A DNA stretch of 41,958 nt, from NCBI GenBank assembly GCA_040080075.1, contig JBEBJD010000254.1:1-41958 (forward strand), given 5' to 3'. Positions within the stretch are counted from its first letter, which is position 1. Every line of letters begins with the position of its first letter. Shown piece after piece: positions 16,336 through 41,958 of the stretch. Position numbers and translations under genes: made by a program. The notes beneath the pieces are model-generated. The model searched no databases. It was not told the origin of the DNA and was given only the letters and a program-made list of their open reading frames with translations. The stretch comes from Hyphomicrobium sp. Its GTDB lineage: Bacteria; Pseudomonadota; Alphaproteobacteria; Rhizobiales; Hyphomicrobiaceae.

Positions 16336-16460
16336 CGTCGTAATGACAATAGCGTTGTAGCGTTGCGCGCCTACGACTTAACGCTTGAATCGCAAACGCC
16401 GGAAAGTCCGGAACGAAGGAGGCACGAGAGCCACACTATTTTCAACCTGGGGGAGTATTA

Positions 16461-17858
16461 ATGCCAGCGCGCAATAGACGAATTCTATGGTCACTGTCAC
16501 TGTCTCTGATTGTGCCGGCGGCGCTGATTGGCTGCGCTGATCCGATTGGCGATTCGGCAACATCCGCGATCCCCGCGCCGGGCTCGCTTACTTCAGACCG
16601 GCAGCTTCCGTTGCGCCCTTGGGTTCCCGATCCGCAGGCTGTCCCCGGATCGGATGGTCCGGCAAGGGTAACTGAAACGATTGGGTTGCAGGCTGCGGTC
16701 TCGCGCGCCGTGGAACACAGTCCTCAGCTTAAAGCCGCGTTCATGGAGATCGAGGCACGTCACGGCGAGGCCGCGCAGGCGTCCTACAGGATAAACCCAG
16801 AAGTTAGCCTCGACATTGAGAACTTCGCCGGTACGAAATCCAAGACCGGCTTTGATGTTGCCGAGGAGACATTGCAGATCTCTCAGACGATCGAACTCGG
16901 AGACAAGCGACTGAAGCGCCTGCGCTCTGCTAGCCTCGAGGCTTCGGTCGCCGGTTGGGACTATGAGGCCGCGAGATTGTCTGTTGCGGCAAAAGCCGCT
17001 GACTATTTTGTCGACGTTCTTGCGAGCCAGGAGAGAATAACTGTTCTCGACGGCTTCATTGCGACCGCCGCGAATACAAAAAACGCGGTGGAAGCGCAGG
17101 TCAAGGGGGGCAAGGCGTCTCCGATCGATCTCGACCGGTCTAATATCGTGCTGGCGCGCGCCAAGGCGCAACGCGAAGCCGAGGCCGCCAAGAACGCAGC
17201 ATCACGTCAATCGCTGTCGGCCCTATGGGGCGGTGGCGGCAGGGCTTTGTTCGCAAGTGTAGCCGGAAAACTCGATAAGGGCAGGAGTGTGCCGTCGATC
17301 TTGCAGGTCAAGTCGATGCTCGATTCAAACCCTGCGCTCGCCCGCTGGGGTGACGAGATTGGCAAGCGCTACGCGATCCTCGATGTCGAACATTCCAAAT
17401 CCATCCCGGATTTCAAGGTCGGCTTAGGAACAAGAGTCTTCAATGAAGATGGCAGCGCGGCACTCGTTGCGTCCGTATCTGTCCCGCTTCAGGTATTCGA
17501 TCGCAACGAAGGAAATATCGCAGCGGCCGAGCGGCGAATCCAGCGGTCGCTCTATGAGGAGCAATCGGCCAGGCGCGATATGACGTCGGCGTTGACGGAG
17601 ATAATTGGCGCCTTGAATGTCGCCCATGCCCAGATCCGGGCTCAGGAAGACGACATCCTGCCCTCCGCTCGCTCGGCCTACGAACGAACCCGTACAGGCT
17701 ACAGCGAGGGAAAGTTTGACTTGCTACATCTATTGGATACGCAAAGGACGCTGCTGGAAAGCCAGTTTGAAGCCGTCAATGCGCGGGCAGACTTCACCAA
17801 GGCTAAAGTGCGACTCGATATGCTGACCGGGCAAGGTGCCGGATCCTCGCAGGAGTAA
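16461..17858 (+). CDS. Outer-membrane efflux factor lipoprotein (TolC/CzcC family)
   Basis: SD 'GGGGGAG' upstream. Lipobox 'ALIGC'. 'LQAAVSRAVEHSPQLKAAFMEIEARHGEAAQASYRINPEVSL' and a second internal repeat are typical of OEP-family proteins. Confidence 0.85.
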   Translation: MPARNRRILWSLSLSLIVPAALIGCADPIGDSATSAIPAPGSLTSDRQLPLRPWVPDPQAVPGSDGPARVTETIGLQAAVSRAVEHSPQLKAAFMEIEARHGEAAQASYRINPEVSLDIENFAGTKSKTGFDVAEETLQISQTIELGDKRLKRLRSASLEASVAGWDYEAARLSVAAKAADYFVDVLASQERITVLDGFIATAANTKNAVEAQVKGGKASPIDLDRSNIVLARAKAQREAEAAKNAASRQSLSALWGGGGRALFASVAGKLDKGRSVPSILQVKSMLDSNPALARWGDEIGKRYAILDVEHSKSIPDFKVGLGTRVFNEDGSAALVASVSVPLQVFDRNEGNIAAAERRIQRSLYEEQSARRDMTSALTEIIGALNVAHAQIRAQEDDILPSARSAYERTRTGYSEGKFDLLHLLDTQRTLLESQFEAVNARADFTKAKVRLDMLTGQGAGSSQE

Positions 17859-18229: not shown

Positions 18230-18822
18230 TTGCTGAAGGTGGTCGAGTTGATGGGTCAGCAACTTAGCTTTTTGGACAGAGATGCGACGTTGCACCACGT
18301 GTTTTTTGCGTTCCTGCCGGACGCGGCGATGGCGGCGTGCGCGGTGGGAATCGCATGCGATGTGCGTCGACGCTTGGGGCTGACGGCAACGCCGATCCCG
18401 CCGGAGCGCCTCCATGTCTCTTGCTATCTGTCTGTGATTTTTTTGGCCGGTGTCCGCCAGCTGTCATCGATAATGCAATGAGGGCAGCCAGCACTGTTTC
18501 GATGGCGCCATTCAAGGTCGAGTTCGATCGTGTCGCAAGCTTTTCCGGAGGTCATGGGAAGCGAGCTCTTGTGTTGACGGGTGGCGACGGCCTCGATGGT
18601 CTCGTGACACTCCGCAAAGCCCTGAGACAAGCAATGACGAAGGCCGGCTCGAGACTCCAGCCGCAGTCGGGCTCCTCACCTCATTTGACCATGATGTACG
18701 ACGATCGAGCGTGCGATTCTTTCCCCATCGAACCGATAAGCTGGACCGTCAGCCGATTTGTTCTTGTTGATAGCCTGGTCGGCCAATCGAGGTGCATGCA
18801 TCTGGGGCAGTGGTCTCTCTGA
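18230..18822 (+). pseudogene. 2',5'-RNA ligase (LigT/ThpR, 2H phosphoesterase) family gene interrupted by a frameshift
   Basis: The N-terminal half, with the first HxS/T motif ('FFAFLPD...PERLHVSC'), is in the frame of ORF 18230..18481. The C-terminal half, with the second motif ('PFKVEFDRVASF...SPHLTMMYDD...WTVSRFVLVDSLVGQSRCMHLGQW'), is in the frame of ORF 18337..18822. The frames can be joined at a T7 run (18438-18444). Confidence 0.7.
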
Positions 18823-18892: not shown

Positions 18893-19705
18893 TCAGGCGG
18901 CCGGAGCTTGGGCAGCACGGGCGGCCTTCCAGTTCCACGGCAGAAGCTCATGGATGCCTTTCAACGGGTGATCCGCGATGCGGCTGAGCACGCCGGCGAG
19001 CCAGGCGCGGGCATCAACGTCGTTGAGCTTGCACGTTTCGATCAGCGTGAACATCGCGGCAGCGCGGTGTCCGCCAGAGTCCGAGCCGCAGAAGGTCCAG
19101 TTGCGACGCCCGACTGCGATACCACGGACGGCGCGCTCCGCCGCGTTGTTGCTCATGCAGAGATGACCGTCGTCGAGGAACCGTGTGAAGGCAGTCCATC
19201 GCTTGAGGCTATAGTCGATGGCCTTCGCGAACGGCGCTTTCGACGAGTGCTTCTTGCGTTCACCGCGTAGCCAAGTCTCCAGATCTTCGGCCAGTGGCTT
19301 CAATCGCTCCTGGCGCACGACGCGCCGCTCGGCCGGGCTCTTGCAGTTGATCTCGCGCTCGGTGGCGAACAACGCGTCGATGCGCTTTACGGCCTCGATG
19401 GCGACCGGGGCCCTCTGCAGTTCGGCGAACTCGAAGAACTTGCGGCGGCCATGGGCCCAGCATGCCACCTCGATGATCATGCCCGGCTTGCGACCCTCGA
19501 CGTAGAGGCCGTTGTAGACGGAGTAGGCGTCAGCCGGCATGAGGCCGGCATAGGTTACAAGGTGACGCTCGGGATGCTCGCCACCGCGATTGCGCGCGTA
19601 ATGCAGGAGAACCGCCGGTGCAGCGCTGCCGCCAAACGGACGATCGTCGCGCACATAACCCCAGAGCCGCGCCACATCGCATTTGCCCTTCGCCAGGACC
19701 GGCGC
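18893..19705 (-). pseudogene. IS66-family transposase (TnpC) 3' fragment, N-terminal ~half missing
   Basis: 'PVLAKGKCDVARLWGYVRDDRPFGG...HYARNRGGEHPERHL..YAG...ADAY..YNGLY...EVACWAHGRRKFFEF...LCMSNNAAERAVRGIAVGRRNWTFCGSDSGG..AAAMFTLIETCKLNDVD' matches the conserved C-terminal core of IS66 TnpC. No tnpA or tnpB and no N-terminal region are present. Confidence 0.8.
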
Positions 19706-19775
19706 CCTCGTCATCGACGCCGTGGATTTGGAAGACATTCTTCGCAATATCAATGCCGACGGTGCCAGTCTGCAT
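19701..19775 (-). pseudogene. IS110-family transposase 5' remnant (first ~25 codons)
   Basis: From ATG 19775 the minus strand reads 'MQTGTVGIDIAKNVFQIHGVDDEGA'. This matches the characteristic IS110-family N-terminus (G-[IL]-D-[IL]-AK-x-x-FQ-[IV]-HG-[VI]-D). It then runs directly into the IS66 fragment in another frame. Confidence 0.6.
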
Positions 19776-20240: not shown

Positions 20241-21653
20241 ATGCGGCAGCTGAAAGTAGTTTGTTCGGCACTTTTCCTTACCACCGGTATTTACTTCGTT
20301 TCTTCCGCTTTCGTGAACCAGCCCGCAGTAAGCCAGGATTTCGGGTTTCGCGGCTTCGGCAAGGCTTTGAAGCGGGCAACGCGCATTCCTCAATTTAACG
20401 CTCCGTCGAATCGCGGATCATCGGGCACGTCCTCTCGCTCTCGCGACGGCTCGCAAGAGCGCAATTCTGGCGGTGAGAATTCGGACGGAGGCGCCTATAG
20501 CAGCGACTCTGCAGCCGGCCCTTCCAGGGAAGAGCAGAAGGCTAATAAGGCCGCTGAAGCCCGGCTCGAAGCAGCGCGGGCCGCCAAGAATCTTTATCGC
20601 TACCGCAAGGAGATTCAGGAGCAAGATAAAGCGCGCGTTCTCGAACGCGGCCGCGATGTCGATCAAGCCATCAAGGACTTCATCAGCAAGCTCGCGGACC
20701 TTCACCTGAGCCTGCGCAAGAAAAAGGGGGCCGATGCCAGGATCGCCCAGGGAACCACTGTCAACGAGGTCACCGAAGGCTCGGTCAGGAATGCCATCGA
20801 GGCCGCCTACGACAAGGCAGGACTCAATGCATTCGCTAGAATGGCCGGCGAGATGTGGACCAAGGATCGCCTTCTCGTTCGCATCGTCGATCATTCCCAG
20901 TCGCAGCTCGGCGGTTACTTCAACGGCGTGGGTGCCCAGGGCCCATCGATGAACGACCTCAAGGCCGACGTCTTTCCCAAATCGGCCAGCAATGTCTACG
21001 GCACCGCACTTGAGTTGAGCGAGCTCATCGGCGTCAGTCACAGCTACGACCGGTTCGTCCGTACGGTTTATGAGAACGTCGACCCGGGCAAGAGCAATCC
21101 CCTGACGAATGGCGGGGACAGCCGCTACGAGCGTTTCGTCACCGCCGCCATCAACTCCGTTCCGTTGCAGAAGTTCGTCAAAAAGAGCGGCGCTGTTTCT
21201 GCAGATGCGGCAGGTCTTGAGCGCAATTTCCAGTTCCGTTTCAGGGCCCGGCGAACGCTCTATGATTGCCTCTCTGCGAACGTCCCGAAACTCATGCGCC
21301 AACTCGGCGGCACCACGATCGATGCCGCCCATCAGGCGCCTGCGGGCCCGAAGGAGAAAACTCGTAGCGCTGGCGTTCAAGCGAATTCGGAATCGGTGAC
21401 GGGGCCTGGAATGCCGACTGGCACCGTCGCGCCGGCCGGGACCCATAACCAGTTCGATGCTGTCTGGGAGAGGACCCAACAAGATCTTGGCTCCACGTGT
21501 GCCAGCCGGATTGCAATCCTGGCAGGTGAGAAAGTGCGGCCAGTCCCCGCGCATTGGAGCAGTGACGGCGATGACGAGCCGGCATCGAGTGGTCCAGCCT
21601 TACACGATCAGATTGAGCCTACAGATGTCGAGAATGGCGGCACCGCAAATTGA
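20241..21653 (+). CDS. Orphan exported protein (470 aa), unknown function
   Basis: SD 'GGGAGG' 5 nt before the ATG. N-terminal hydrophobic segment 'VVCSALFLTTGIYFVSSAFV', Ser/Gly/Arg-rich low-complexity region, charged helical region 'EEQKANKAAEARLEAARAAKNLYRYRKEIQEQDKARVLERGRD', then ~300 aa with no recognisable motif. Its antisense 378-aa ORF is Arg/Ala-rich shadow. Confidence 0.7.
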   Translation: MRQLKVVCSALFLTTGIYFVSSAFVNQPAVSQDFGFRGFGKALKRATRIPQFNAPSNRGSSGTSSRSRDGSQERNSGGENSDGGAYSSDSAAGPSREEQKANKAAEARLEAARAAKNLYRYRKEIQEQDKARVLERGRDVDQAIKDFISKLADLHLSLRKKKGADARIAQGTTVNEVTEGSVRNAIEAAYDKAGLNAFARMAGEMWTKDRLLVRIVDHSQSQLGGYFNGVGAQGPSMNDLKADVFPKSASNVYGTALELSELIGVSHSYDRFVRTVYENVDPGKSNPLTNGGDSRYERFVTAAINSVPLQKFVKKSGAVSADAAGLERNFQFRFRARRTLYDCLSANVPKLMRQLGGTTIDAAHQAPAGPKEKTRSAGVQANSESVTGPGMPTGTVAPAGTHNQFDAVWERTQQDLGSTCASRIAILAGEKVRPVPAHWSSDGDDEPASSGPALHDQIEPTDVENGGTAN

Positions 21654-21699
21654 GCGGAACAAGGGCATCCCTTGTTTGATGACCCTTCATGAGGGGCAT

Positions 21700-24600
21700 A
21701 TGACTTTGACTGGGTGTTTGAGACGGGCGAATAGGATCGCGGCCAATCTCGCCGCCGCTAGAAGCTTTTTCGGCGTTTTATGTCTGATGCTGATCGCCGG
21801 CACCGCTCATGCCGATCAGAAGACGCGCCGCGCATTCGTCGTCGGTGTCAGCGATTACCAAGACGGCAGCGGGCTGCCGAGCCTCGTCTCGCCCGCGCAG
21901 GATGCTGACGACGTCGAGTTGGCCCTGTCGCGTCAGGGCATCGGCTTCGAGATCAGAAAGCTAAAAAACGACGCCGTCAAGGACAAGCAGACATTCGATG
22001 AGACATTCGATGCCTTTGCCGAAGAGATCAATCCCGGTGACGACGTACTGTTCTACTTTTCAGGCCATGGCTACTACGTCACCGGTAAGGGGAACTATTT
22101 CCTCTTGCCGAGCGCCAAGAACCAGATCGCTTACCTGACGTTTCTTAAGAGCACATCGAAGGACGAGGCCCGCGAGCTCGATACGGAGGACAAGCAGACA
22201 AAGCGGTTCGAGCAGTGGATAAGTGAGGTCGGCATATCGGAGCAGGATCTCGAGGCAAAGATCAAGGCCAGGAAGCCCGATGTCACAATCATCATAGCCG
22301 ATGCCTGCCGCAGCTTCAGCACAGCAACAAAGGGGGCAGTCCTTGCTAAGGGTGACGGCGGCCTTTCGCTCCCGGCCGAAACCGCCACTGGAGTGTTCCG
22401 CCTCTATTCTGCCCAGAAGGGCCAGGCGGCGAACGATGGCACAAAGTCCTCAGCGGGGAAGAGCAAGAAGAGCTCGGATGAGGAAGGCGATACGGCAACC
22501 AAACGAAAGGCACGCGCCGAGCGGAAGCCGAACTCGCTCTATACGCGTGCGCTGTTGCGTTTCATCTCCACACCGAAGCTCGAGATAAACGAACTGCATG
22601 CGAAAGTGAAGCGCTACGTCCGGGCTGCCGCCGTCGAGTCTGGCGGCATCCAGATTCCTGATTTCAGCGAAGGCCAGAACTCGACCGACTTCTTCTTCTT
22701 CCAGGGTGACGACGGCGGCGACACCCTGGCGGCCTGCGCAACCGCTTCCGACGAGCTGGAACGACTTCGCTTTGGCGTGAGCGCGGGCAGCGTGTCGCGC
22801 GACGAGATCGAAGCCAAGCGCGGAGAACTCGCTCCGTGCGGACGGGAGTATGTCGAGGGAATCGCAAAGATCGCCCGGCTGCAATCCCAAGGAGCAGGTG
22901 AGTTGCAGGCGCAAAGTGGTGGGCCAGGCTCGAGCCTTGATCCACGCAAGACCGACCCCGGCGATCCCACTCAGCTCTGCGATCGCCTCGCCGCCTCTCC
23001 GTTCGATAAGGATCGGCCGCAGGGTATCGCCGGTGTGGACATCAGGCGCTTGGCACTCGATGGATTGGGAAGTGCCGCCGATCGCCAGCGCCCAGTCGAT
23101 GAGATCGCCCGCGCCATCGATGCCTGCACAAAGGCAGTTGCCGACAAAGGCCGCGTGGCCCGCTTCAAGTTCAATCTCGCCAGCGCGCACTACGCCATGG
23201 CAACGCTGTCGATTGGCCTGAGCCGTGACGAGGCGCTGCGGCAGGCCTCGATCCTGAACCAGGAAGCTGTCGATCTCGGCTACGCGGCGGCCTACAACAG
23301 CCTCGCCCTAATGCACCAGAACGGCGAGTACTTCGAGGCGAAGCCGCGCCCGGACGCAAAAAAACAAGCTGGCCAAAAGCCTGCTACGGCCGATCCGATA
23401 TCTCCCGCCGGAAGCGAGCAGCCAGAAACGTTACAGCAGGCCTCAGTCGCCTCTCCGCCAAATCGCAAGAAAGCGCGGGAACTCCTCCAGCGGGGCGCCG
23501 ATCTCGGAAACGTGTTGGCGCAATACAATCTCGGTCTCGCGTATAAGAACGGCGATCTCGGGGTCAATGCGGCACTGGCCGACGACAACAAAGCCGGGTC
23601 CGACCCGACCTCGGAGAGGACCAGCGCGGCCATCGCCTATCAGTATTTGTCGAAGGCCGCGGAAACCGGCTTCGTCCCCGCCAGCATCGAGACAGCCCTT
23701 GCCTTGAAGGAAGGCCGTGGAATTGCACCGGATCCCCGGCGGGCCATCGAGCTACTCGAGATCGGCGCTTCGCGGGGGTCGTGGGAAGCCATGTACCAGA
23801 TCGCACAAATCTATGACTCGGGCGCCTACGGCTCTGATCCCGACGACATTGAGGACGATATTTCGCACAACGCGAGCGAGGCGCTGATCTGGTACGCACG
23901 AGCCGCTGAGGCGGGCGACACACGTTCGCAGGCGCGGCTCGCAGACATGCTGACAAAAGGGACGGGTGTGCCGTCACCGCAGCCCGAAACGGCCGCGCGC
24001 TATTGGCGGCTGGCGGCCGCGGGCGGCGACGAGCTGGCGCAGTTGCAGCTTGCAAACCTTGTGCGCGACGGCGGAATCCCGGCGCGGCCGAAAATGGAAG
24101 GCGACCCGGACGGGGGAGCCGAGGAGATCTATACCCTCTACCGCAGTGCCTTCGTGCGGGGTAATCCGGCTGCTGGGCTGGAACTCGCCAAGCTCTTTCG
24201 AACCGGTTTTCCTCCAGAGAAGGGCTCTGTGGCCATCCCAAAGAGCCCGGAAGTTGCCGTGGCGCTGCTGTGGGAGGCGATTACGCGTGCGCGCCGGTTT
24301 CCTGACGACAGCTACGAGGCCGATCCTGCCTACGAGCAGCCGTTTGGGGCGGAGCTGATCCGACTTTACGACGCTAGCGAAGCCAAGCGTGACGATGGAA
24401 CGTCTCTTATTACTGAAGGCCAGATCGAGCAGCTTCGCGCGGACTACGGCGATCCGGACAAGTTCATTTACATCAATGCCAATGCACTCTCGCCAAAGCA
24501 GATCCGCTGCAAGGGAATGCTGGTCACCGAGCCCGTTTGGGTTGGGCTGTGGGACGCTAAGTCGTCCGCGTCTCCAGTGGAGCGGCAGTTCGATTGGTAT

Positions 24601-24804
24601 GAGCGCTACCACAGATGCAAGGACAAGCCGCCGAACTCGAAGCTCAAGGATGAGGATCTGGGTTTCAGCAAGAAGATTCGTGAGCTCGTGAGGCAGCAGT
24701 ACGAGAACGCCGAAAAGGACCGCGAGAAGGATCCGCTCAAGGCGAAGTCGTTCTCCGATCGGTTGATCGACATCGTCGTGAAAGACAAGGACAGGAAAAA
24801 GTGA
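21700..24804 (+). CDS. Exported caspase-like (peptidase C14) protein with C-terminal Sel1-like repeats
   Basis: Start chosen at ATG 21700 (SD-like 'GAGGGG' upstream; ATG 21679 is possible). The tracked 21457 start would overlap the previous gene by ~200 nt. Signal-like 'FFGVLCLMLIAGTAHA/DQ'. Caspase dyad 'FYFSGHG' (His codon 22066-22068) and 'IIIADACRS' (Cys codon 22306-22308). Sel1-like repeats include 'AAYNSLALMHQNGEY', 'LAQYNLGLAYKNGDLG', 'ALIWYARAAEAGD' and 'AARYWRLAAAGGD'. Confidence 0.85.
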   Translation: MTLTGCLRRANRIAANLAAARSFFGVLCLMLIAGTAHADQKTRRAFVVGVSDYQDGSGLPSLVSPAQDADDVELALSRQGIGFEIRKLKNDAVKDKQTFDETFDAFAEEINPGDDVLFYFSGHGYYVTGKGNYFLLPSAKNQIAYLTFLKSTSKDEARELDTEDKQTKRFEQWISEVGISEQDLEAKIKARKPDVTIIIADACRSFSTATKGAVLAKGDGGLSLPAETATGVFRLYSAQKGQAANDGTKSSAGKSKKSSDEEGDTATKRKARAERKPNSLYTRALLRFISTPKLEINELHAKVKRYVRAAAVESGGIQIPDFSEGQNSTDFFFFQGDDGGDTLAACATASDELERLRFGVSAGSVSRDEIEAKRGELAPCGREYVEGIAKIARLQSQGAGELQAQSGGPGSSLDPRKTDPGDPTQLCDRLAASPFDKDRPQGIAGVDIRRLALDGLGSAADRQRPVDEIARAIDACTKAVADKGRVARFKFNLASAHYAMATLSIGLSRDEALRQASILNQEAVDLGYAAAYNSLALMHQNGEYFEAKPRPDAKKQAGQKPATADPISPAGSEQPETLQQASVASPPNRKKARELLQRGADLGNVLAQYNLGLAYKNGDLGVNAALADDNKAGSDPTSERTSAAIAYQYLSKAAETGFVPASIETALALKEGRGIAPDPRRAIELLEIGASRGSWEAMYQIAQIYDSGAYGSDPDDIEDDISHNASEALIWYARAAEAGDTRSQARLADMLTKGTGVPSPQPETAARYWRLAAAGGDELAQLQLANLVRDGGIPARPKMEGDPDGGAEEIYTLYRSAFVRGNPAAGLELAKLFRTGFPPEKGSVAIPKSPEVAVALLWEAITRARRFPDDSYEADPAYEQPFGAELIRLYDASEAKRDDGTSLITEGQIEQLRADYGDPDKFIYINANALSPKQIRCKGMLVTEPVWVGLWDAKSSASPVERQFDWYERYHRCKDKPPNSKLKDEDLGFSKKIRELVRQQYENAEKDREKDPLKAKSFSDRLIDIVVKDKDRKK

Positions 24805-26516
24805 CCTCTGTCCGGGTACGTTCCGTGAGCCAAATTCAAGCCGTGCGTTCACGCGTTGTGGCCGGCGAGCTAACTAAGCCAAGACCAGCGGCGGCTCGAT
24901 CTCATCTGGTATGGGCCCGTCGGCTTGCCGTCCTTTTTCTCACTCTAGTCATTCTGGCCTCTGGGGTGCCGCCGGCTGCGGCGGATGCCGAACTGTTGCA
25001 GGCGCCGGGTCAGGGGGGGAGAATTCTCGCCCTTGTTATCGGCATAGATCACTACAAGAACACAAAGATTGCTCCGGTCCTGAATGGCGCCGTGGCTGAC
25101 GCCAACGACATCGCTGCCACCCTCACTCGAATGGGCGTGACGAATCTGAAACTTCTTCTCGAGGAGCAGGTCACGCGCGCTGCACTCGAGGCGGCCATGG
25201 CGGAGGTGGAGCAAGATGCGCGGCGTGGCGATCTGGTGATCGCGACCTATGCTGGACACGGCAGCCGCGAGAAGGAGCTCGTTGCAGGCAGCGAGCCCGA
25301 CGGCAAGGATGAGTTCTTCGTACTCTGGGGCTTCGACTCGAAGGGGCCCGGCACGGCCGAGCGGATGGTCGACGATCAGGTCTTCGACTGGCTGAAACGC
25401 ATTGCCGCCAGGGGCGCCGGAACGATTTTTGTGGCCGACAGCTGCTATGGCGGCGGTATGACCAAGGGCATCCAGCGCCGCCCCGACGGCCCCAGCGTGC
25501 GGGCGATCGAGCGCGTCGACGAGCCTGAGCAGGCCGGACGCGGTGCCTACTACATTGCCCCCGAGGAGGATGAGTTACCACCGGTCAGAGCCGGCTCACC
25601 GGACGATGACGCAACGAGCCAGCTAGCCGGTCTTTCATTCATTTCTGGCGTCGACGACAAGCACCTTGCGCCCGAGGTACGCCTTGCCGATCAACCGACG
25701 CCGAGAGGGGCGGCGAGCTTCGCGTTTGCGCGGGCGCTGGAAGGAGTAGCTGACCGGGAAGGCGACCGGAACGGGGCCACAACGCGCGCCGAGCTGTTTG
25801 GGTTCCTACATCGCACGGTCGCACATTTGAGTCAGAACCAGCAGGCGCCCGACACCAAACCGCGAACGCTTGAGACCGCTTCGGTCATCCTATTTCGCGG
25901 CTCGCCCTCAAGCCCGGAAACAGCTGTCGCCGCATCGAAACGGGAGAAATTGAGCACCGCCGGCCTGGCACCCGGGCAGGTGCTATCCGGCGTCCTCTGG
26001 GATGGCGCAACAGGCAATGCCATCGACTATTCAGGGGCCGTTCTGGCATTCGGAATCGCCAAGACTGACATCCTCAAGGTCGAGCAACGAGTATCGGCCT
26101 TTCGAATACTTGCGCGCCTGGCCAGCGGACGCGCGATCGACACAGCACTGAACCCGGGCGACCGCAACCTGAAGAATGGCGAACGCTTTGAGCTCGCCAT
26201 CAGCGGCATTTACGGGCGCCATCTGATCCTTATCAACCTTGCCGGCAATGGCACGGTTCAGTTCCTGTTTCCGGCGGGCAACGCGCCCAATTACATGGAC
26301 AAGAACGAACTCACGATACCTTTGAAGGTTGGCGCGCCTTTCGGATCCGACACGATTGTCGTCGTGGCGAGTTCCCAGCGAAGGCGCGAGCTTGAGGCCG
26401 ACCTCAAGTCAATCGACGAGAAGACTGCTTCGCTCGACCTCGCTGCCCTGCTCGAGAAAGGCCTCGATGCAGAAGATCGCCTCGGTCTCGCCACCTACAC
26501 GACCGTGCCCAACTGA
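24801..26516 (+). CDS. Exported caspase-like (peptidase C14) protein with DUF4384-like C-terminal domain
   Basis: The GTG start overlaps the upstream stop (GTGA, 24801-24804); the exact start is uncertain. Signal-like 'LAVLFLTLVILASGVPPAAADA'. Caspase dyad 'LALVIGIDHY...VIATYAGHGS...TIFVADSCYGGG'. C-terminal 'GERFELAISGIYGRHLILINLAGNGTVQFLFP...TIVVVAS' resembles DUF4384. Confidence 0.8.
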   Translation: MTSVRVRSVSQIQAVRSRVVAGELTKPRPAAARSHLVWARRLAVLFLTLVILASGVPPAAADAELLQAPGQGGRILALVIGIDHYKNTKIAPVLNGAVADANDIAATLTRMGVTNLKLLLEEQVTRAALEAAMAEVEQDARRGDLVIATYAGHGSREKELVAGSEPDGKDEFFVLWGFDSKGPGTAERMVDDQVFDWLKRIAARGAGTIFVADSCYGGGMTKGIQRRPDGPSVRAIERVDEPEQAGRGAYYIAPEEDELPPVRAGSPDDDATSQLAGLSFISGVDDKHLAPEVRLADQPTPRGAASFAFARALEGVADREGDRNGATTRAELFGFLHRTVAHLSQNQQAPDTKPRTLETASVILFRGSPSSPETAVAASKREKLSTAGLAPGQVLSGVLWDGATGNAIDYSGAVLAFGIAKTDILKVEQRVSAFRILARLASGRAIDTALNPGDRNLKNGERFELAISGIYGRHLILINLAGNGTVQFLFPAGNAPNYMDKNELTIPLKVGAPFGSDTIVVVASSQRRRELEADLKSIDEKTASLDLAALLEKGLDAEDRLGLATYTTVPN

Positions 26517-26927
26517 ATCGGCGCTACGAGGGCAAGAATATGTGATCTTGCCAGAAAGTTCTTTGCGAAATGATAGTGACCGCCAGCCGCGCGTCGTTCT
26601 GACGTGACGTGGTGAGGTAAGAGCGCAAAGCGCGAAGGGACAGCGGTCGCAATTCAATGCGGCGCCAATTCGTTCACTGGCTGTCCGGTTGTGTCCGCGG
26701 TACCTCTTGACGCGGTGATCATTAGCGGACACCGCGGCGGTGCAAAATCTCCGCCGTCGTTACTTCGGCTACGGGTCACCTGCCAGCATGAGCAGCACAT
26801 GCCGGCGACGACGGCCCTACCCCAACAAGCGGAAAGCCCTGGCGATTTTTGCGTCTTCGACAGCTGGACCTCCAGCTCCGCAAAGGCCCGATCGAGCGCG
26901 GCACGGGGAGAGCGCGTCAAAAGGTGT

Positions 26928-29732
26928 CTATTTTGCCCCTTCGCCCACGACGACGAACGGTGCCCAAATCGCGGGGTGCGCGGCGGGCTGCCAATTCTTC
27001 GGCCGGGACACGTCGGCCATGGCTGCCAGCATGGCCAATCTCAATGCTTCGGCGCGGCCGATTGCAGGGTCACGCTTCAACTCAGCGAAGGCGCCGGTCG
27101 TCAGCTTCACGGCGGCATGGCTGTCTACGTACCAATGCGAGACCAGGAGCGCGCGGGCGCCCGCATAGAAGAATGCGCGACCGAGGCCCGAGAGCACTTC
27201 GGTGTCACCGATCTCGCCGCCTGATGCGGTATTGCAAGCTGATAGAACTACCCAGTCAGCGTTTAGCTTTAATTGACTTACCTCTGAGGCGGTAAGCAGC
27301 CCATCATCCTTCTCCGTGGCCGTTTCCGGCGGCGTCAGTATCAGAGCCGGTTCGGATCGAACTTTGGCGATACGTTTCGTCTCGCTCGCCAAGAGGCCGT
27401 GAGTCGCAACATGCACGACGGCATAGTTGGCAAGGTCACCCGAGCCGCTGAGCGACTTAATCCTATTCTCGGTCGCATTGCTCCCGAGATTGACGTCGCC
27501 AATGTTAGCACCGAGAAGGCTGGCGACTGCGCATAATTCGTCCGCTGTCTCGGGGAGGGGGGGGTGACGGCGCAAACTTTCGACATCGCCGGGACCGCCA
27601 CGAAAGTATTTGGCGATGCTCTCGGGAACCTCCCAGCCGGCGATTTCGACCGGCTTGGCACGTGGCTCGCTGGTGCACATTTGCCGGGAAGATGCCGTCC
27701 GGTCCGAACCGTCCCACCCCATCAGTAGCGGGTTACCAAAACCGATGAAGGGATGCGATGCTGTTCTGGTTTTGGTAAACTGGCGCAATGCGCTGAGGCT
27801 CGAAACCGACGGAAGCACGCTAATTGCATGGCTCTTTGCAAGCCAGGCCGCCTTTGCATATTGCCCGGCATCCTCGGAACTCCCAGGGTCTGGCTTGTCT
27901 GTAACAAGTACTTGGAATGGCAACGACGCAAGCGGCCCCGCAGATACGATCAGCAGCTTTTTACCAGCGATGAGATCATTAAATGGGCCGACGAAATCGC
28001 GGTACAAGCCGTGCGCAGTGGCAAGGTCGAAGGGGAGCGGAGCGTTGGCTTTGACTTCGGTTTCTGTGAGTAGTTTGCAGCGTTCGCGCCGCATTGATTG
28101 CTCTTGTTTTCGCCACTTATCCCCCTCGCTCGCTTCCTGCCATCTGCTGGGATCAATCCAGTTTGACGAATCTAACCCGCAGCGGAGCCTCTGCACTCTA
28201 GTTGCAATCTCGTCCTGATCGAGTGCAAGCTTGACCCATCGAACATCATCGTGGGCCACAGCCCAGACAAATGAACCGGTCCCCGTAAGCGTCAGCAGGA
28301 TCAAAACCTCGTCCGGCCTTAGCTGCTGTTGAACCTCCTTGAAGGATAGTGGCTCGGGTCTGACGAGTGAATGATATTCAGGGAATTCGCTTTTTAGCCG
28401 AGCGTCCGCTTCCGCAATGTGCTGCTCAATGCCGGTCAACTGGTCTCGCAATGGTTGGCTGTTGTCCCGGCCAGTCTGTTGAGTACTTGCGGAAAGACTC
28501 GCAAGCAGCTGCTTGTCGAGCTTCGACCATTTGCCAGATAGATCCTGACTTAAGCGGACCAGATCGCTCAACGCTCCAACCACTTTGCCCTGGCGTGCCG
28601 CCATCTGCGCCAGAGCGGTGGCTGCCGCGGTCTGCCCCGCCCATTGGGCCATGTTAAAGGCTTGCTCTGCAAGCGAATGCTGGAGCGCCGGCATCTCTCT
28701 GGCGCGTTCCCACGCAGTGCCCAGATAGGATTCGAACAGGACCCGGTTCCAGGGGGTGTCGAGCGGACTGCCGGCACGCGCGGACACCATCTGCGCACTG
28801 TTGCGCATCCGGTCAATGACGATCTTCACCGCTTGGTTCGTATAATCAAGGGACTGAGCCCACTGACGTTGTTGAGCGGAAACCGCTGCAAGATTATGTA
28901 GAGTGAAAGCAACCTCGGCATTGTCGCGGCCTGGCGCTCTGAAGATTACCAATGCTCGACGTAAGTAAGCTGCAGCGTCTGCATAACGCCCTTGAGCTTG
29001 GTAGACCAAGGCGAGATTGTTGCAAGCCAGCGCTACGTCCGAGTGGATGGGGCCCCGCACCCGTACGAAAATGCGCAGTGCGCGGTGAAAAAGTGACTCT
29101 GACTCATTGTAGCGCCGTTCAGCGAGGTAGAGCCGGGCGAGGTTGTTGTATCCAAGCCCGGTGTCGAGGCTTTCTAGGCCACGGGAGTTTTCGAAAATCT
29201 GAACGGCTTGTTTATGCATGCGCTCCGCTTCTTGAAACCGGCGCTGCACTTGGTAAACCTCGGCCAGTTGGCTCAATGCCAGTGCTACTTGAGGATGGTT
29301 TTCGCCGAGCGATTTTTGCCTGATCTCCAAGGCGCGTTGATAGAGTGGTGCCGCTTCGGAATAGCGGCCCTGCAATTGAAATACGAAAGCCAGGTTTTTG
29401 AGGCCGGTGGCAACGGAAGGGTCGTCGCGGCCTAGTTTCTGTTCCAATTTTCCGATGGCGCTGCGATACATTCTCTCAACATCATCGAAGCGGCCTTCGT
29501 CTAAAAATTGCTGAACACGGACTTCGAATGGCAACGCTGGCCCGGCAGTCACATTCTCCTTGGTGTCGTCACCTGCAATAGTGAATGCGGGGATGCTATC
29601 ATTGGGAGATCCAGGTGGAGTGGTCAGCAAGTGAGCAAGCGGCTGTTCAGCATGCAGTTGGGTTAGACCGGCAACGAACGAGATGATCAAAAGACCACAA
29701 GCCAGTGCGCGTATCCGCCTGCACAGCTCCAT
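26928..29732 (-). CDS. Exported TPR-repeat / CHAT-domain (caspase-fold) protein
   Basis: Signal-like 'ALACGLLIISFVAGLTQLHA/EQ'. Five or six kinesin-light-chain-type TPRs ('LKNLAFVFQLQGRYSEAAPLYQRALEI', 'LSQLAEVYQVQRRFQEAERMHKQAVQI', 'YNNLARLYLAERRYNESESLFHRALRI', 'CNNLALVYQAQGRYADAAAYLRRALVI'). CHAT dyad 'YAVVHVATHGLL' and 'WVVLSACNTASGG'. Confidence 0.85.
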   Translation of the reverse strand: MELCRRIRALACGLLIISFVAGLTQLHAEQPLAHLLTTPPGSPNDSIPAFTIAGDDTKENVTAGPALPFEVRVQQFLDEGRFDDVERMYRSAIGKLEQKLGRDDPSVATGLKNLAFVFQLQGRYSEAAPLYQRALEIRQKSLGENHPQVALALSQLAEVYQVQRRFQEAERMHKQAVQIFENSRGLESLDTGLGYNNLARLYLAERRYNESESLFHRALRIFVRVRGPIHSDVALACNNLALVYQAQGRYADAAAYLRRALVIFRAPGRDNAEVAFTLHNLAAVSAQQRQWAQSLDYTNQAVKIVIDRMRNSAQMVSARAGSPLDTPWNRVLFESYLGTAWERAREMPALQHSLAEQAFNMAQWAGQTAAATALAQMAARQGKVVGALSDLVRLSQDLSGKWSKLDKQLLASLSASTQQTGRDNSQPLRDQLTGIEQHIAEADARLKSEFPEYHSLVRPEPLSFKEVQQQLRPDEVLILLTLTGTGSFVWAVAHDDVRWVKLALDQDEIATRVQRLRCGLDSSNWIDPSRWQEASEGDKWRKQEQSMRRERCKLLTETEVKANAPLPFDLATAHGLYRDFVGPFNDLIAGKKLLIVSAGPLASLPFQVLVTDKPDPGSSEDAGQYAKAAWLAKSHAISVLPSVSSLSALRQFTKTRTASHPFIGFGNPLLMGWDGSDRTASSRQMCTSEPRAKPVEIAGWEVPESIAKYFRGGPGDVESLRRHPPLPETADELCAVASLLGANIGDVNLGSNATENRIKSLSGSGDLANYAVVHVATHGLLASETKRIAKVRSEPALILTPPETATEKDDGLLTASEVSQLKLNADWVVLSACNTASGGEIGDTEVLSGLGRAFFYAGARALLVSHWYVDSHAAVKLTTGAFAELKRDPAIGRAEALRLAMLAAMADVSRPKNWQPAAHPAIWAPFVVVGEGAK

Positions 29733-29805
29733 CGTCCCCTCCGTTTAAGTCCGCGTTTGCAGGTAATGCATGAGTGCCACGGCAGCCAAGACACTGGGCC
29801 GGATA

Positions 29806-30114
29806 TTATTGACCGTCCACCTCAGGCATGGGTTCAAGGCGCCCCTTACCCATTCCCACTGAACCACCGCCTTCACCGGATTCAGATGTACTTCCTTCCA
29901 TTCCAGGCATTGGACGCTGTTGCATATTGAGATCAGGATAAGGCGGCGGGGATACCCCACCGGGTGAAACTGGTCCGGGGACGCCCGGAGTCCATCTCGG
30001 TTCAATCGGCTCCGTTGTCCCTTCCGTTTGAGCCTGTGCAATCGGCCACAGAAGTCCCACATTTAACGCTGCAACCATGCCTACAAATACCAGGGATCTG
30101 AAAAGTCTGCGCAT
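29806..30114 (-). CDS. Small exported Pro/Gly-rich protein (102 aa), unknown function
   Basis: Start moved to ATG 30114, preceded by SD 'GGGAGG' at 5 nt; the tracked longer ORF has no support. 'MRRLFRSLVFVGMVAALNVGLLWPIAQA/QTEG' is signal-like. The mature part is Pro/Gly/Glu/Met-rich ('PGVPGPVSPGGVSPPPYPDLNMQQRPMPGMEGS'). It lies 73 nt upstream of the CHAT gene on the same strand. Confidence 0.55.
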   Translation of the reverse strand: MRRLFRSLVFVGMVAALNVGLLWPIAQAQTEGTTEPIEPRWTPGVPGPVSPGGVSPPPYPDLNMQQRPMPGMEGSTSESGEGGGSVGMGKGRLEPMPEVDGQ

Positions 30115-31193
30115 GAATGCCTCCCTGAACTGGAAACGCCAGAATGGACTGCGGCTCAGATTCCGAATGCGGCGTTTGGGCTCGATAATGACGAGATCAA
30201 AACGCGGTGCCTGAGAGCAGGCCAAGGACGGCCACCACCTTTTTAAAACTCCCGGCGGCCCAGAAGAAGACTTATCATGGAGTACCGTCGATGTCAGCAT
30301 CGGTGTAAAATCGTCGTTCGAAGCCACGTCTGCAACACGGACGGTAGTCATTACCTTGCGGAAGTCACGGTGCTCGTAACCGTCTGTTGAAGTCTGCGGC
30401 GTGAGGTGGGATAATTACTCATGCGGTCGACTGGGAGGACCAGTGCCCCAAGGGCAAGCAATCCCACCACCAGTTCGGCGTCCGCGGGTGGAACAGTTCA
30501 ACGCCGTTCGACGAGCTTGCGGTTTATTGAGAGCCGCTTGCGTAGGCGGGAGTATCGCGCGCACCTCGCGGAAGTGAGGGTCAGGCACAGTCCGGCCGCT
30601 TCAAATGTTCAGCGTCGTTCCAATCAGCTTACTAATGGCCTGCATGGAGGTCTTAAGCATCGTCTTTTTACTGGAAGGCATGCTGGCGGCCTGAACGCGT
30701 GCCGAAACCCGGATACCCCGGAGCACATCATCGACCTGCTGAGCGAGTACCCACTAGGGGCAAGGTTATCCTGCCAGCCCACAAAGAAAACATCCAACTG
30801 AATGGCTTTGTGACGCTGGCGTCGCTTGGTGCCAGGGGCAAGCCAATTGAATGCATCATCCAACTATTCGAATATTATCCCGAAACCGATACGCATAAGT
30901 CCGGAAAACAGGCATCTGCTACATTCGGCGCAACCAACAAAATTGAATTGATCAATGTTGCGCTACCCCGCTCACAAAAGCATTGTGCCCTATTCTTTCG
31001 CTTACGGAGCGAACCGGATTATTGGCTTATCATCTCTCATTACTTGAGAGAAAAATGCAACACTTGCACAGATAAATAGGAATATCAGGCGATGTATGTT
31101 GAGTGACTGCTTATTCATCGCGATAGAATGCATCGATATTTTTTGTGCTAACTGCGATGACTCTTAATGGGCACCGTCAGATCGGAGATTTCG

Positions 31194-32111
31194 ATGCGGA
31201 GGCTGGCTTTTTGGGGCGCCATTAGCGCGATCTTGGCGGGTGGCAGCGCATGGGCGGCTGATCTGGGAGTGCCCGAGCCAATCACAACTCCTGACGGCGT
31301 ATCCACATCTGGTTGGACACTGCAGTTCACGACCTACGGCTGGGTGCCCTGGCTAACTGGCGAAGCCAAAATCGCAGGGCGTTCATTTGACGTCGATGTG
31401 GGCCCCCAGGATATTTTCAAGAATCTCGACTGGTCCCAAATACCTGCGTGGATGAGCTACATGGAAGCTCGTAATGGCCGGCTGAGCTTGTTCAACGATA
31501 TAGTTTACTCAAAAATTGCCGGCTCCGCAGACTTTGCCAAAACAGTCACGCGCCGGGTCGCCACCCTCACTCTCGGCGGCGAAATCGAAGCAGATTATGA
31601 GCAGGCAACCGTTGAGGCAGGTGCCGCCTACGAAGTCTGGTCGAGCGGCAGCCACGGTTCAGCCGGTGTTACTGCAATTGATGTATTGGCCGGTATTCGC
31701 TATTGGCATCAGGAAGCGAGCCTCTCCGCTAACGTCAACGCGACGCTGTCGATTGAGGGACCGCGTGGGCTGATTGGATTGTCCAGATCTGGAAATCGAG
31801 TGTTTGCCAAATCAGGTTCCGTAGATTGGGTTGACCCCATTGTTGGCGCGCGCTTGCGGCATCAGGTTGCGCCGGGTCAGGAGCTAGTGCTACGGGGCGA
31901 CATCGGAGGATTTGGTGCGGGCAGCGATTTCTCGTGGCAGGCCATTGGAACGTACAACTGGCAGATGTGCACAGTGGGCGGATTGGTGCTTAACGGCTAC
32001 GCCGGCTACCGTGCTTTACAGGTCGACTACGAGCAGGGCTCTGGCCTCAAAGAATACAAATATGATGTGCTGCAACACGGTCCGGTTTTTGGCCTCACGA
32101 CGAATTTCTAA
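31194..32111 (+). CDS. Outer-membrane beta-barrel protein
   Basis: ATG 31194 with SD 'GGAGA'. Signal peptide 'AFWGAISAILAGGSAWA/ADL'. Alternating amphipathic strands and a C-terminal 'GPVFGLTTNF' with terminal Phe, typical of OM barrels. Confidence 0.7.
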   Translation: MRRLAFWGAISAILAGGSAWAADLGVPEPITTPDGVSTSGWTLQFTTYGWVPWLTGEAKIAGRSFDVDVGPQDIFKNLDWSQIPAWMSYMEARNGRLSLFNDIVYSKIAGSADFAKTVTRRVATLTLGGEIEADYEQATVEAGAAYEVWSSGSHGSAGVTAIDVLAGIRYWHQEASLSANVNATLSIEGPRGLIGLSRSGNRVFAKSGSVDWVDPIVGARLRHQVAPGQELVLRGDIGGFGAGSDFSWQAIGTYNWQMCTVGGLVLNGYAGYRALQVDYEQGSGLKEYKYDVLQHGPVFGLTTNF

Positions 32112-32283
32112 CACGCACCAATCGATCCCTTGATGAACGCCACTTAGCCAAGCTACTTGCCGTTCATTGGCACCCGGTCCGCCCAAGTAAGCATTTACTG
32201 TGTGTTGATAGAATAAGCTCCAGGGTCGAGATGTAACCGCTCCGGCTCAATTGCGACCCAAGCATTAATCCGCAATCAACTTC

Positions 32284-33081
32284 TCACTGGCTCGTTGGGA
32301 ACAGGAACGTTAGCGTTGAGCGGAGAGCGAAATCATGCGGCCCAGCATCTGGACTTTCAGCCCAGTAGCGCACTCCGCCACCAAGACTGACGGGTTGTTT
32401 GCCGATCATCAAAAGCTTACTCACGTTGAAATTGACGGGCACAGACCAGGCCTCCGCAGTCCAGTCGTAAGTGGACTCGGTGTTGAGACTGAATGTCCAG
32501 GCATCTGGCGTGGTATATGACACGAATGGCTGCAGGAATGTGCTGCTCACGTCCGCGCGGACATCTTCTCCCGCAAAAGACCAGATGTGATTGGCAAGTA
32601 CGCCAAGCGTCCAGCCATTCTGTTGTGTCAGCATCACCGCGGTAGGTCCGGCACCCCACTTTTCTGTGCTGAGCAATTTGTCCGTGCCCGTCGGCAGCAA
32701 TATTACGGGACCAACACCCCAGATAACGCCATTTGTTGGTTGCTTCGGCGAGAAGAAGAGACTCTGGACCGTATCGCTGAGACCTGTCTGTTCCCCTGCA
32801 AGCGGAAAAATATCATCTTGCCAGACGACTGGTACGATCGTTCGTGAGATCAAATTCCAGTCTTGATTGAGCGAGATCGGAATAACCGGTTGGATATTGA
32901 GAGTAACCTTTTCCCCGTCCCGGTCCGGCCCAATGTGGCCGTCATAATTAAACTGTAGTGGTACGCTGATCAACGAGGCGATGGGGTTGGAAAGTTTTTT
33001 GGCGAGATCAGCAGAGTCCTGCGCGCCCGCCGCTGTGGGCAACAATGCATATGCCAAAAGTACAACCGGGCTCCATCGCAT
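32284..33081 (-). CDS. Outer-membrane barrel of the MetA-pathway/'transporter' family
   Basis: Signal peptide 'VVLLAYALLPTAAGA/QD'. The N-terminal 'LAKKLSNPIASLISVPLQFNYD' motif and ~265-aa size resemble the putative phenol-degradation MetA-pathway OM channel family. Family assignment is from memory. Confidence 0.6.
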   Translation of the reverse strand: MRWSPVVLLAYALLPTAAGAQDSADLAKKLSNPIASLISVPLQFNYDGHIGPDRDGEKVTLNIQPVIPISLNQDWNLISRTIVPVVWQDDIFPLAGEQTGLSDTVQSLFFSPKQPTNGVIWGVGPVILLPTGTDKLLSTEKWGAGPTAVMLTQQNGWTLGVLANHIWSFAGEDVRADVSSTFLQPFVSYTTPDAWTFSLNTESTYDWTAEAWSVPVNFNVSKLLMIGKQPVSLGGGVRYWAESPDAGPHDFALRSTLTFLFPTSQ

Positions 33082-33387
33082 TATTCACCTCACAATCACG
33101 TTCCTGAAAAATTACTCGCTTTCACGCTGCCTAACGACACTTATTCACTTGATACTTTGGAACCGCTCGGGTCGTGTGACCGGCTGGCCACATTTTTTTG
33201 CGACCGAATGCCCCCGTGATCGGTCAACGATATCGCGGTATATAAAAAACGAGGATCATGGGTCAAAAGCGGCTGACAAGCCTACCCCAATTCTGACGAT
33301 ACCAATCCCGCTCATCAGCAATTCAGTTGGCGTATGGGTAATGGCATGTTTTGAAGTTGTTCACGGTTCACCATCGCCTTATAGGTT

Positions 33388-34569: not shown

Positions 34570-34638
34570 ATGAAGGGATACGGGCCTTGCCCGTTGCCCC
34601 AAACAAAGTCCGCATTGCCATAGTGGCCGCAAAGCCGC

Positions 34639-36285: not shown

Positions 36286-36445
36286 AACGTTCAGTCTTTC
36301 TGCATACCTCGAACCAACAGAACCTGACACTTCGCCTGATGCCAATTGTCATCGCCGCCACCGTTAACTCGTCTGGACTGAATACATCCCGCTTGGGGAA
36401 AAAAGTGACACTAACTCCACATTGAGCCGGGCGCTCACGGATCGT

Positions 36446-37765: not shown

Positions 37766-37808
37766 CTCTATAGTTCCCGCACTCACTTGATTAGTTGCAG
37801 CAGCTCTC

Positions 37809-39314: not shown

Positions 39315-39345
39315 CGTAGCATCCCAAACTGGTATGACAGCGCGC

Positions 39346-39783
39346 TCATTTCAGAGAAATCTGCATTCCACTCAGATCAAGTGAGAATTCGAGACCAATC
39401 TGTTTGCCGCGCAATTTCAACACAACCCCCTTGGAGTTCTTGAGCTGCGCTGTTTTTGATCCACCCGCAGCCGCCACGCCCGCCTGGAGCGCCGTGTAGG
39501 TCCCCTCAATATCGGACGATGAGTTAAGCCCCGTGGCCTCCCCGATGAGTTCTGCCTTAGATGCTCCGATTGTGGCACCAAGACTGACCCCACCGATATT
39601 GAGCGGATAGGCCTTTCCACCGAACGTCAACGTACCGCTACCGCCACTGACGCCGAGAATGAACCCAGCTTTGTAGACTTCGATAGCAATTTGACCGGAC
39701 TCAGCACGCGACGGCGTACTGCCTGCCAGCAAGAGTGCGGCAACCGCTATTGCCATCTGAAATCGGCGCATTGAATTGAACAT
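39346..39783 (-). CDS. Small exported Gly-rich beta protein, unknown function
   Basis: Start set at ATG 39783 (SD 'AAGGGA' at 7 nt). Signal 'MAIAVAALLLAGSTPSRA/ES'. The mature part is Gly/Ser/Ala-rich ('GFILGVSGGSGTLTFGGKAYPLNIGGVSLGATIGASK'). Confidence 0.6.
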   Translation of the reverse strand: MFNSMRRFQMAIAVAALLLAGSTPSRAESGQIAIEVYKAGFILGVSGGSGTLTFGGKAYPLNIGGVSLGATIGASKAELIGEATGLNSSSDIEGTYTALQAGVAAAGGSKTAQLKNSKGVVLKLRGKQIGLEFSLDLSGMQISLK

Positions 39784-39841
39784 TGACTTATCCCTTGATT
39801 GACGCCCGCGGTTCATGCCGCTGTCTGATTTTATATTCCGG

Positions 39842-41905: not shown

Positions 41906-41958
41906 GATAAATGCTCCATTTTGGCTGGTCCCATCCAAAGGCAGGATGCAACTTGACG

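Follow-up and report, generated by a model that had tools for sequence, protein, structure and literature searches.

The window analyzed here, a stretch of 41,958 nucleotides of Hyphomicrobium sp. (NCBI GenBank assembly GCA_040080075.1, contig JBEBJD010000254.1), contains five neighboring genes, named A to E in this work, which encode three proteases of the caspase type (B, C and D) and two further proteins (A and E) devoid of any match in Pfam or NCBIfam, A being devoid of any PADLOC match as well; all five products look exported, judging from their N-termini (Table 1). An earlier examination of the letters and translated open reading frames (ORFs), made without database searches and referred to below as the sequence-only reading, had taken the five genes for one extracytoplasmic proteolytic module. 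Our analysis of related loci makes it probable that the window instead holds two independent exported protease-plus-partner modules, whereby A-B-C is the local variant of a widespread three-gene envelope system and E-D stands separately.

Table 1. Genes of the two putative modules and the adjacent insertion sequence (IS) remnant (window coordinates; aa, amino acids).
Feature	Position	Strand	Product	Pfam
Gene A	20241-21653	+	470 aa, predicted signal peptide, predicted exported	none
Gene B	21700-24804	+	1034 aa	Peptidase_C14 1.3e-16, Sel1 9.5e-21
Gene C	24801-26516	+	571 aa, metacaspase-like	Peptidase_C14 8.3e-15, DUF4384 19.2 bits
Gene D	26928-29732	-	934 aa	TPR_12 x4 (1.7e-47), CHAT 4.8e-49
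Gene E	29806-30114	-	102 aa, Pro/Gly-rich	none
IS66-family transposase fragment	18893-19753	-	5'-truncated, directly upstream of A; context, outside the module	

The GTG start codon of C overlaps the TGA stop codon of B as GTGA, just as the sequence-only reading had pointed out, with AGGA/AAGGA upstream; B and C are translationally coupled via this overlap, and A-B-C, with GAGGGG preceding the ATG of B, is one operon to which D lies convergent. The start chosen for E by the gene caller would yield a protein of 181 aa, but the 102-aa start is favored because the sole homologue of E is also 102 aa long. A scan for promoters and terminators returned counts no higher than those of shuffled sequence.

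The caspase-type His/Cys dyads recognized by eye in B, C and D proved to be intact and conserved in relatives, and the domain assignments are well supported: Peptidase_C14 (PF00656) scores 61.4 bits in B and 55.5 bits in C against a gathering score of 21.4, the CHAT domain (PF12770) of D reaches 167.8 bits against 24, and the Sel1 repeats of B and the TPRs of D are likewise borne out by Pfam. On the strength of these dyads, B, C and D look catalytically competent. In protein B, the signal peptide is followed by a C14 domain (His124/Cys203), a Cys-bearing linker and Sel1 repeats, whose region matches solved Sel1 proteins. Its C-terminal domain resembles DUF2610 in relatives, the B-like gene of locus L042 reaching 26.9 bits where the gathering score is 21; this whole architecture is common to the B-like genes of L042 and L068. 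For C (His153/Cys215), the C14 part of the earlier description stands, while its DUF4384-like end remains weak, given that the match to PF14326 falls under the gathering score of 27 and that the orthologues also have only weak precomputed matches. The dyad motifs, SGHG/DACR in B and AGHG/DSC in C, are kept in all intact orthologues. Furthermore, C aligns to the yeast metacaspase Yca1 (4F6O) and to GSU0716, its 'ADA' and 'DSC' facing 'NDA' and 'DSC', respectively, and the same two Asp are present in B ('QDA' and 'DAC'). The Asp of this N-terminal 'xxDA' loop and the one that precedes the catalytic Cys by two residues are what we take to be the S1-pocket residues of metacaspases; because both are present, the two caspases are predicted to cleave after Arg or Lys.

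Each of the five N-termini comprises a basic stretch, a hydrophobic segment and an AxA-type site. The export calls were obtained with a crude heuristic combined with conservation, and further backing comes from cysteines that are invariant but non-catalytic (six in B, two in A), which fit disulfide-bonded periplasmic proteins. A signal-peptide-like segment is found in every A, B and C orthologue despite low identity, in about 70 full-length representatives of the A family and in about 100 of the 120 closest TPR-CHAT homologues, where it typically ends in AxAQ; in B, the caspase domain begins straight after the predicted cleavage site. The sequence-only reading had considered B, C and D to be exported, and the retention of this N-terminal pattern in orthologues agrees with it. 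A Tat signal was contemplated for C and discarded in favor of Sec, which is likelier since the RR pair is not kept in orthologues.

Gene A had been regarded, together with E, as an orphan. This holds in the sense that neither protein matches a Pfam or NCBIfam family, but A is no orphan, since its family comprises at least 137 clusters, while E has one homologue. A word-indexed search retrieved a close family of 8 clusters, and the profile built from these 8 sequences, when run against 1.84 billion representatives, reached at least 137 clusters (defined at 50% identity) with E<=1e-3, 58 of them with E<=1e-30; none of these 58 members has a Pfam match on the A domain. The protein consists of a signal peptide, a basic, low-complexity stretch rich in Gly, Ser and Arg, and an all-helical core spanning approximately residues 95-440, which is rich in invariant polar residues; the two invariant Cys mentioned above complete the picture, with a disulfide predicted between Cys343 and Cys420. 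An AF2 model of this core (residues 95-440, 58 sequences) is made up entirely of long helices and was obtained with confidence (predicted local distance difference test score, pLDDT, 85.8; predicted template modeling score, pTM, 0.78), yet Foldseek comparison of the model with the PDB and BFVD gave no fold match, the best E-value being about 0.5 and none falling below 0.4, and a profile search of PDB sequences with A was equally negative. A preceding model of full-length A, derived from 8 sequences, had a pLDDT of 54 and meaningless Foldseek matches, and was superseded by the core model.

Four family members carry the A domain in the same chain as a caspase domain. Two of them, P0086 and P0091, read signal peptide-C14-A domain, whereas P0121 and P0135 read TIR-one transmembrane (TM) helix-C14-Sel1-(B-type C-terminal domain)-A domain, so that the latter would amount to B plus A in one polypeptide behind a membrane anchor, with the TIR domain predicted to be cytoplasmic. 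As a separate observation, the gene for P0121 adjoins, in locus L027 (3575-6355 and 7537-11553), a gene with DUF5906, a primase/helicase-associated domain, which hints at a mobile-element setting. Many A-family proteins (P0005, P0007, P0011, P0016 and others) also display, directly after the signal peptide, a Gly-zipper-like hydrophobic stretch (e.g. AIGIGAGLLLLNEAAKAM) that may mediate membrane association and that is degenerate in the A protein of the window.

The argument for splitting the five genes into two modules comes from gene order in relatives, all of which are metagenome-assembled genomes (MAGs) or metagenome contigs, with frameshifts in L003, L009, L014 and L019 and with near-duplicates (L001=L010, L002~L009, L003~L016) included in the locus counts. 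The succession A, C14-Sel1, C14 occurs in the same order in L001, L002, L004 and L005, and as a frameshifted copy in L003; a CHAT gene is found in none of L001-L005. A scan of species-representative genomes detected 16 loci, all in Hyphomicrobiaceae or in unclassified alphaproteobacterial MAGs, and tblastn with the five window proteins placed A and B next to each other in all 16, with C following in most. At least 17 distinct related A-B loci have neither a CHAT gene nor E inside 10 kb, and in an all-versus-all comparison of the flanking ORFs the only conserved members were A and B, with 20 locus entries each, and C, with 13. Across divergent members of the one family, identity amounts to 33-47% for A and 38-65% for B. 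A gene order shared with relatives thus exists for A-B, joined by C in 13 entries, and leaves D and E unlinked. For its part, the E-D pair recurs in L025 and L026 without caspase genes nearby. Since D and E are absent from the surroundings of A-B and E-D recurs alone, the juxtaposition of both modules in the window appears incidental, and the IS66 fragment beside A, which retains profile positions 75-283 only of DDE_Tnp_IS66 (3.8e-62) in addition to IS66_C, is consistent with rearrangement of the region. The IS debris reported upstream by the sequence-only reading is real.

These data bear directly on the five-gene system initially envisaged, in which B, C and D would act as a proteolytic cascade or share the processing of A and E. 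In its favor, all five proteins appear to be exported and their genes lie side by side in the window; however, the constant absence of D and E within 10 kb of A-B, the autonomous occurrence of E-D together with the convergent orientation of D, and the restriction of conserved neighbors to A, B and C in a region rearranged next to an IS66 fragment render this possibility very improbable, and we have abandoned the idea of a single module.

The third position of the cassette is less constant than the other two. C is missing in at least five loci (L017, L018, L020, L022 and L024); in L020 an exported trypsin directly follows B (14092-15249, +), and in L022 the region 14037-17542 (-) holds a Trypsin-DUF4384 protein, with DUF4384 barely passing at 27.1 bits, together with a C14-FGE-sulfatase protein. 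The third slot seems, on this account, to tolerate a change of protease class. Locus L019 contains, 10 kb upstream of the A-B-C cassette and within the same MAG, a second exported C14-Sel1 gene (3-1505, +); these genomes carry several exported caspase homologues.

The same architecture extends well beyond the close relatives of the window. A metagenome scan with the fusion-type A domain recovered 117 loci, of which 80 were taken for analysis, with domain calls made mostly by BLAST with our own domain queries and confirmed with Pfam for a subset. A gene encoding C14, Sel1 and the B-type C-terminal domain lies directly upstream of the A-type gene, on the same strand, in all 65 soil or peat metagenome loci with upstream sequence, and L028 has a distant A gene downstream of one ending in the B-type C-terminal domain. 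The A-B linkage is accordingly strict, as attested by adjacency in about 85 loci and by the four fusions, and this combination of adjacency and fusion identifies A as a real partner of the protease. Among the 32 loci with at least 2 kb of additional sequence, the gene preceding C14-Sel1 encodes a C14 protein in 16 and a TIR protein in the remaining 16 (14 of the latter called by BLAST, L086 and L095 by Pfam). All nine upstream proteins scanned with Pfam, of both C14 and TIR types, terminate in an FGE-sulfatase domain; the C14-FGE proteins have signal peptides, and the TIR-FGE proteins have one TM helix between the two domains. Two parts of the system are constant, the exported C14-Sel1 protease and the A family. 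The third is variable and would join a caspase, trypsin or TIR effector to a binding domain of the FGE-sulfatase or DUF4384 type. The window itself has C14 with a weak DUF4384 match only in this place, as compared to C14 or TIR in 32/32 loci of the wider family and FGE-sulfatase in 9/9 of those scanned. Some of these cassettes have extra membrane or TIR genes directly after the A gene, such as a 670-aa protein with a DUF4231 match (L086, 7735-9747, +) and further TIR proteins that have a hydrophobic helix or two (L070, 5738-6997, +; L047, 2761-4395, -).

It could still be argued that the three proteases are secreted for digestion or nutrition and have nothing to do with the genes beside them, as signal peptides in an environmental organism from soil or water might suggest. 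We consider this highly unlikely in view of the dedicated partner genes, the fusions, the protein-interaction repeats and the TIR-TM variants, and also because no associated secretion system beyond Sec accompanies the genes.

Module E-D is of a different nature. Protein D is an unremarkable representative of the TPR-CHAT proteins, a very large family that looks mostly exported and whose products are labeled at NCBI as 'CHAT domain-containing tetratricopeptide repeat protein'; at least 672 homologue clusters were found at E<=1e-20 among those scored, and the dyad His778/Cys833 is kept in 119-120 of 120 homologues. A metagenome scan with D alone gave no match. The single homologue of E, 58% identical, is encoded directly upstream of the 67%-identical orthologue of D in L025 and L026. 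The conserved C-terminal motif of E, MQQRPMPG...GGxSVGMGKGRLEPMP, has a counterpart in cis at the mature N-terminus of the TPR-CHAT homologue P0210 (MEQRPLPG..GGQFGMGKGRVD), immediately ahead of its first TPR. E against P0210 gives a Smith-Waterman score of 66, as opposed to a best score over the same database of 38 +/- 4 (maximum 54) for shuffled E, none of 300 shuffles reaching 66. Because the motif lies in cis in P0210, E looks like a detached N-terminal piece of such proteases, which could act as propeptide, ligand or substrate of D. The sequence-only reading had proposed that both secreted proteins, A and E, are partners of the proteases, and conserved adjacency and domain fusions uphold this for the two of them. 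Small ORFs upstream of other TPR-CHAT genes (L029, L030) were considered as equivalents of E and dismissed, for they are unrelated and have no signal peptides; E is thereby lineage-specific, and the evidence for its partnership is thinner. Locus L029 carries two tandem TPR-CHAT paralogues (2162-5020 and 6655-9723), the first of which is P0210 with its E-like motif in cis. Another TPR-CHAT homologue, P0147 (L030/L031, ~5001-8771), is found among resolvase, HEPN_AbiU2 and T5orf172 genes in a defence-island-like context that the neighborhood of D does not resemble.

How A, B and C might work together can be outlined from the above. B would operate in the periplasm on, or together with, A, and its most likely target would be the basic, disordered linker that follows the signal peptide of A; this site is favored because the S1 aspartates predict cleavage after Arg or Lys and because of the analogy with the protease-gated EACC1 and Pepco (PMC12642450). 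The Sel1 repeats, which have been treated as peptidoglycan- or envelope-associating in conflict systems (PMC7159879), would position B on an envelope ligand, while sensing of a ligand, along with another output, would be the contribution of the third protein. Alternatively, A could be a dedicated periplasmic inhibitor, chaperone or adaptor that keeps B latent or presents substrates to it, in the manner of staphostatin with staphopain or of NlpI with Prc. Strict A-B linkage and C-terminal fusion of the A domain to the protease speak for this option, as do the many invariant polar residues of the core, which would suit a specific interface, and a fold that matches neither pore formers nor enzymes; there is no direct counterpoint, the disordered basic linker and the EACC1/Pepco precedent (PMC12642450) favoring A as a substrate by analogy only. 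We hold this alternative to be possible, if on the unlikely side.

As to the purpose of the cleavage of A by B envisaged here, the TIR domains, the C-type-lectin-fold FGE-sulfatase (FGS) domains, which Kaur et al. 2020 (PMC7159879) treat as ligand binders in conflict systems, and the interchange of effector types point to conflict or surveillance in the envelope as a possible task of A-B-C; a conflict function gains circumstantial support from the TIR fusions and the effector swapping. In its fullest form, this proposal makes A-B-C and its relatives a periplasm-resident, NTPase-free immune or surveillance system: once the lectin-fold or DUF4384 domain has sensed an envelope ligand that is foreign or derived from damage, Sel1-anchored B would cleave A and thereby release or activate its helical domain. 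The output would be either further periplasmic proteolysis, in the C14 and trypsin variants, or, in the TIR-TM variants, a TIR NADase of the cytoplasm that is activated across the membrane. Such a system would be the counterpart, outside the cytoplasm, of the protease-gated defence modules, and its new constant component would have a novel fold. Taken as a whole, this scheme is decidedly unlikely.

A number of observations weigh against the interpretation given so far. Several A-B-C loci of Hyphomicrobiaceae adjoin the housekeeping genes ychF, pth and rplY, and the genes diverge roughly with their hosts, so that a vertically inherited physiological function fits as well as defence; a scan with the A profile found no A-family match on viral contigs, and PADLOC returns generic caspase or TIR matches only. 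That B cleaves or binds A is a prediction, and the fusions are just as compatible with an A domain that regulates or inhibits the protease or recognizes its substrates. In C, the caspase domain shows no specific relation to the C14-FGE proteins, for which reason the equivalence of C to the variable slot is a positional and domain-type argument only. Export rests on a heuristic and on conservation, and the linkage of E to D on two closely related genomes plus one fusion.

A physiological envelope function is consequently a serious rival. According to it, A-B-C would be a housekeeping system of Hyphomicrobiaceae and related soil bacteria devoted to periplasmic processing, quality control or envelope morphogenesis, with Sel1 binding peptidoglycan or a polarity factor. 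The chromosomal location, next to ychF-pth-rplY in several MAGs, the spread over divergent members of one family at the identities given above, the inconsistent presence of mobile or defence genes nearby together with zero viral matches, and the abundance of envelope genes (YkuD, SLT, OmpA) in the window all agree with such a role. What it does not readily accommodate is that the cassette can do without its third component, whose catalytic type changes between caspase, trypsin and TIR, that TIR, a domain typical of immunity and of NAD-depleting effectors, appears in half of the wider family, and that some loci lie near DUF5906 or DUF4231 genes with a variable genomic position. Weighing both sides, we regard the housekeeping explanation as rather unlikely.

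To our knowledge, all characterized bacterial caspase and CHAT systems are cytoplasmic. Gingipains, clostripain and PmC11 are secreted clan-CD proteases of the caspase-hemoglobinase fold which cleave after basic residues outside the cytoplasm, but they belong to families C25 and C11, take other secretion routes, have digestive or virulence roles and are associated with neither Sel1 nor an A-type partner. A-B-C resembles the protease-effector defence modules, in which the gene for a caspase-like or trypsin-like protease neighbors that for a latent partner such as EACC1, Pepco, gasdermin, or MBL and alpha/beta hydrolases (PMC12642450, PMC7159879), and with which it shares a caspase-fold protease strictly linked to a small or unknown neighbor, an interchangeable effector (caspase, trypsin, TIR) and FGE-sulfatase lectin-fold domains as presumed binders. 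In contrast, those modules act in the cytoplasm coupled to STAND, MoxR-vWA or other NTPase sensors, whereas A-B-C has no NTPase and bears export signals on protease and partner; A, moreover, is a helical domain of 250-300 residues unrelated to EACC1, Pepco or gasdermin.

Identity with particular known systems was ruled out case by case. An EACC1-caspase module is incompatible with scores of 45 bits (B) and 31 bits (C) for NCBIfam caspase_w_EACC1 against a cut-off of 140, and with the fact that A is helical and 470 aa long, EACC1 being a beta-rich protein of about 13 kDa (PMC12642450). A gasdermin-protease system does not agree with the absence of Pfam and PADLOC matches for A and E or with an all-helical A model without fold match. 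NTPase-centered conflict systems (STAND, vWA-MoxR; Kaur et al. 2020) were discarded since no STAND, MoxR, vWA or GTPase domain occurs in the window or among conserved neighbors. The TPR and CHAT composition and the catalytic dyad of D are shared with Csx29 of type III-E Craspase (Cas7-11 plus TPR-CHAT Csx29), but D has a signal peptide and, in the place of Csx30/Csx31, the small secreted Pro/Gly-rich E, and the window contains no Cas domains in its ORFs and no CRISPR-like repeat array. Likewise, the sequence-only reading was correct in stating that an NTPase, gasdermin, CRISPR-Cas, nuclease or cyclase partner is absent, no such domain being detected by Pfam in window ORFs of at least 150 aa.

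Whether the organization is new had been left in the earlier examination at the level of personal recognition, and it can be specified as follows. The existence of exported caspase homologues was already known from the catalogue of Asplund-Samuelsson et al. 2012 (PMC3501461), which lists C14+Sel1 and C14+FGE-sulfatase architectures matching B and C14-FGE, hydrophobic helices at the N-terminus that were interpreted as signal peptides, and alphaproteobacterial operons with several metacaspases, and the TPR-CHAT family is very large; the three-gene set, the A family and a function are absent from that catalogue. The literature searched, which does not cover every journal, as well as Pfam, NCBIfam and PADLOC, yielded no account of the A family, the three-gene cassette, the TIR-TM variants or the E motif. 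The apparently undescribed elements are therefore an extracytoplasmic, NTPase-free protease-partner system with effector swapping and its constant component of unrecognized fold.

The relevance of these findings lies in that a conserved cassette of protease, partner and variable effector, with export signals on the protease and partner domains, recurs in about 100 loci, and in that half of the wider family appears wired by a single membrane helix to a predicted cytoplasmic TIR. If this picture is true, caspase-type proteolytic signaling also operates in the bacterial envelope, a new family of unrecognizable fold joins the known protease partners, and a compact three-gene system is open to heterologous expression. 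The exported TPR-CHAT proteins, for their part, constitute a very large and unstudied family.

With regard to the genomic surroundings, the window belongs to a metagenome contig of 78 kb (ENA ERZ795400 NODE_11), and megablast gave no plasmid match to the region. Upstream of A, Pfam delineates an RND efflux operon, a LigT-like 2'-5' RNA ligase ORF (18337-18822, +) and the IS66 fragment; the segment 8944-17858 comprises a two-component system (HisKA/HATPase and an OmpR-type regulator) adjoining the CzcCBA-like efflux operon (HlyD_3, ACR_tran, OEP), and an IS3-type integrase gene (rve, HTH_21) is located at 7466-8587 (-), so that the efflux operon and the caspase genes are bracketed by mobile-element remnants. 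At the extreme edge of the window, a 1293-aa ORF (8-3889, +) with RTX calcium-binding repeats begins at a GTG on base 8 and is followed by a 1024-aa ORF (4293-7367, +) with zero Pfam matches. Downstream of E, positions 31167-41938 are occupied by a run of envelope genes which includes two signal-peptide proteins of 314 and 265 aa without Pfam match, possibly located in the outer membrane, and a DUF900 hydrolase, a YkuD L,D-transpeptidase with PG_binding, a protein with Cys-rich repeats, an SLT+SBP_bac_3 (MltF-like) transglycosylase, OmpA and DUF2950.

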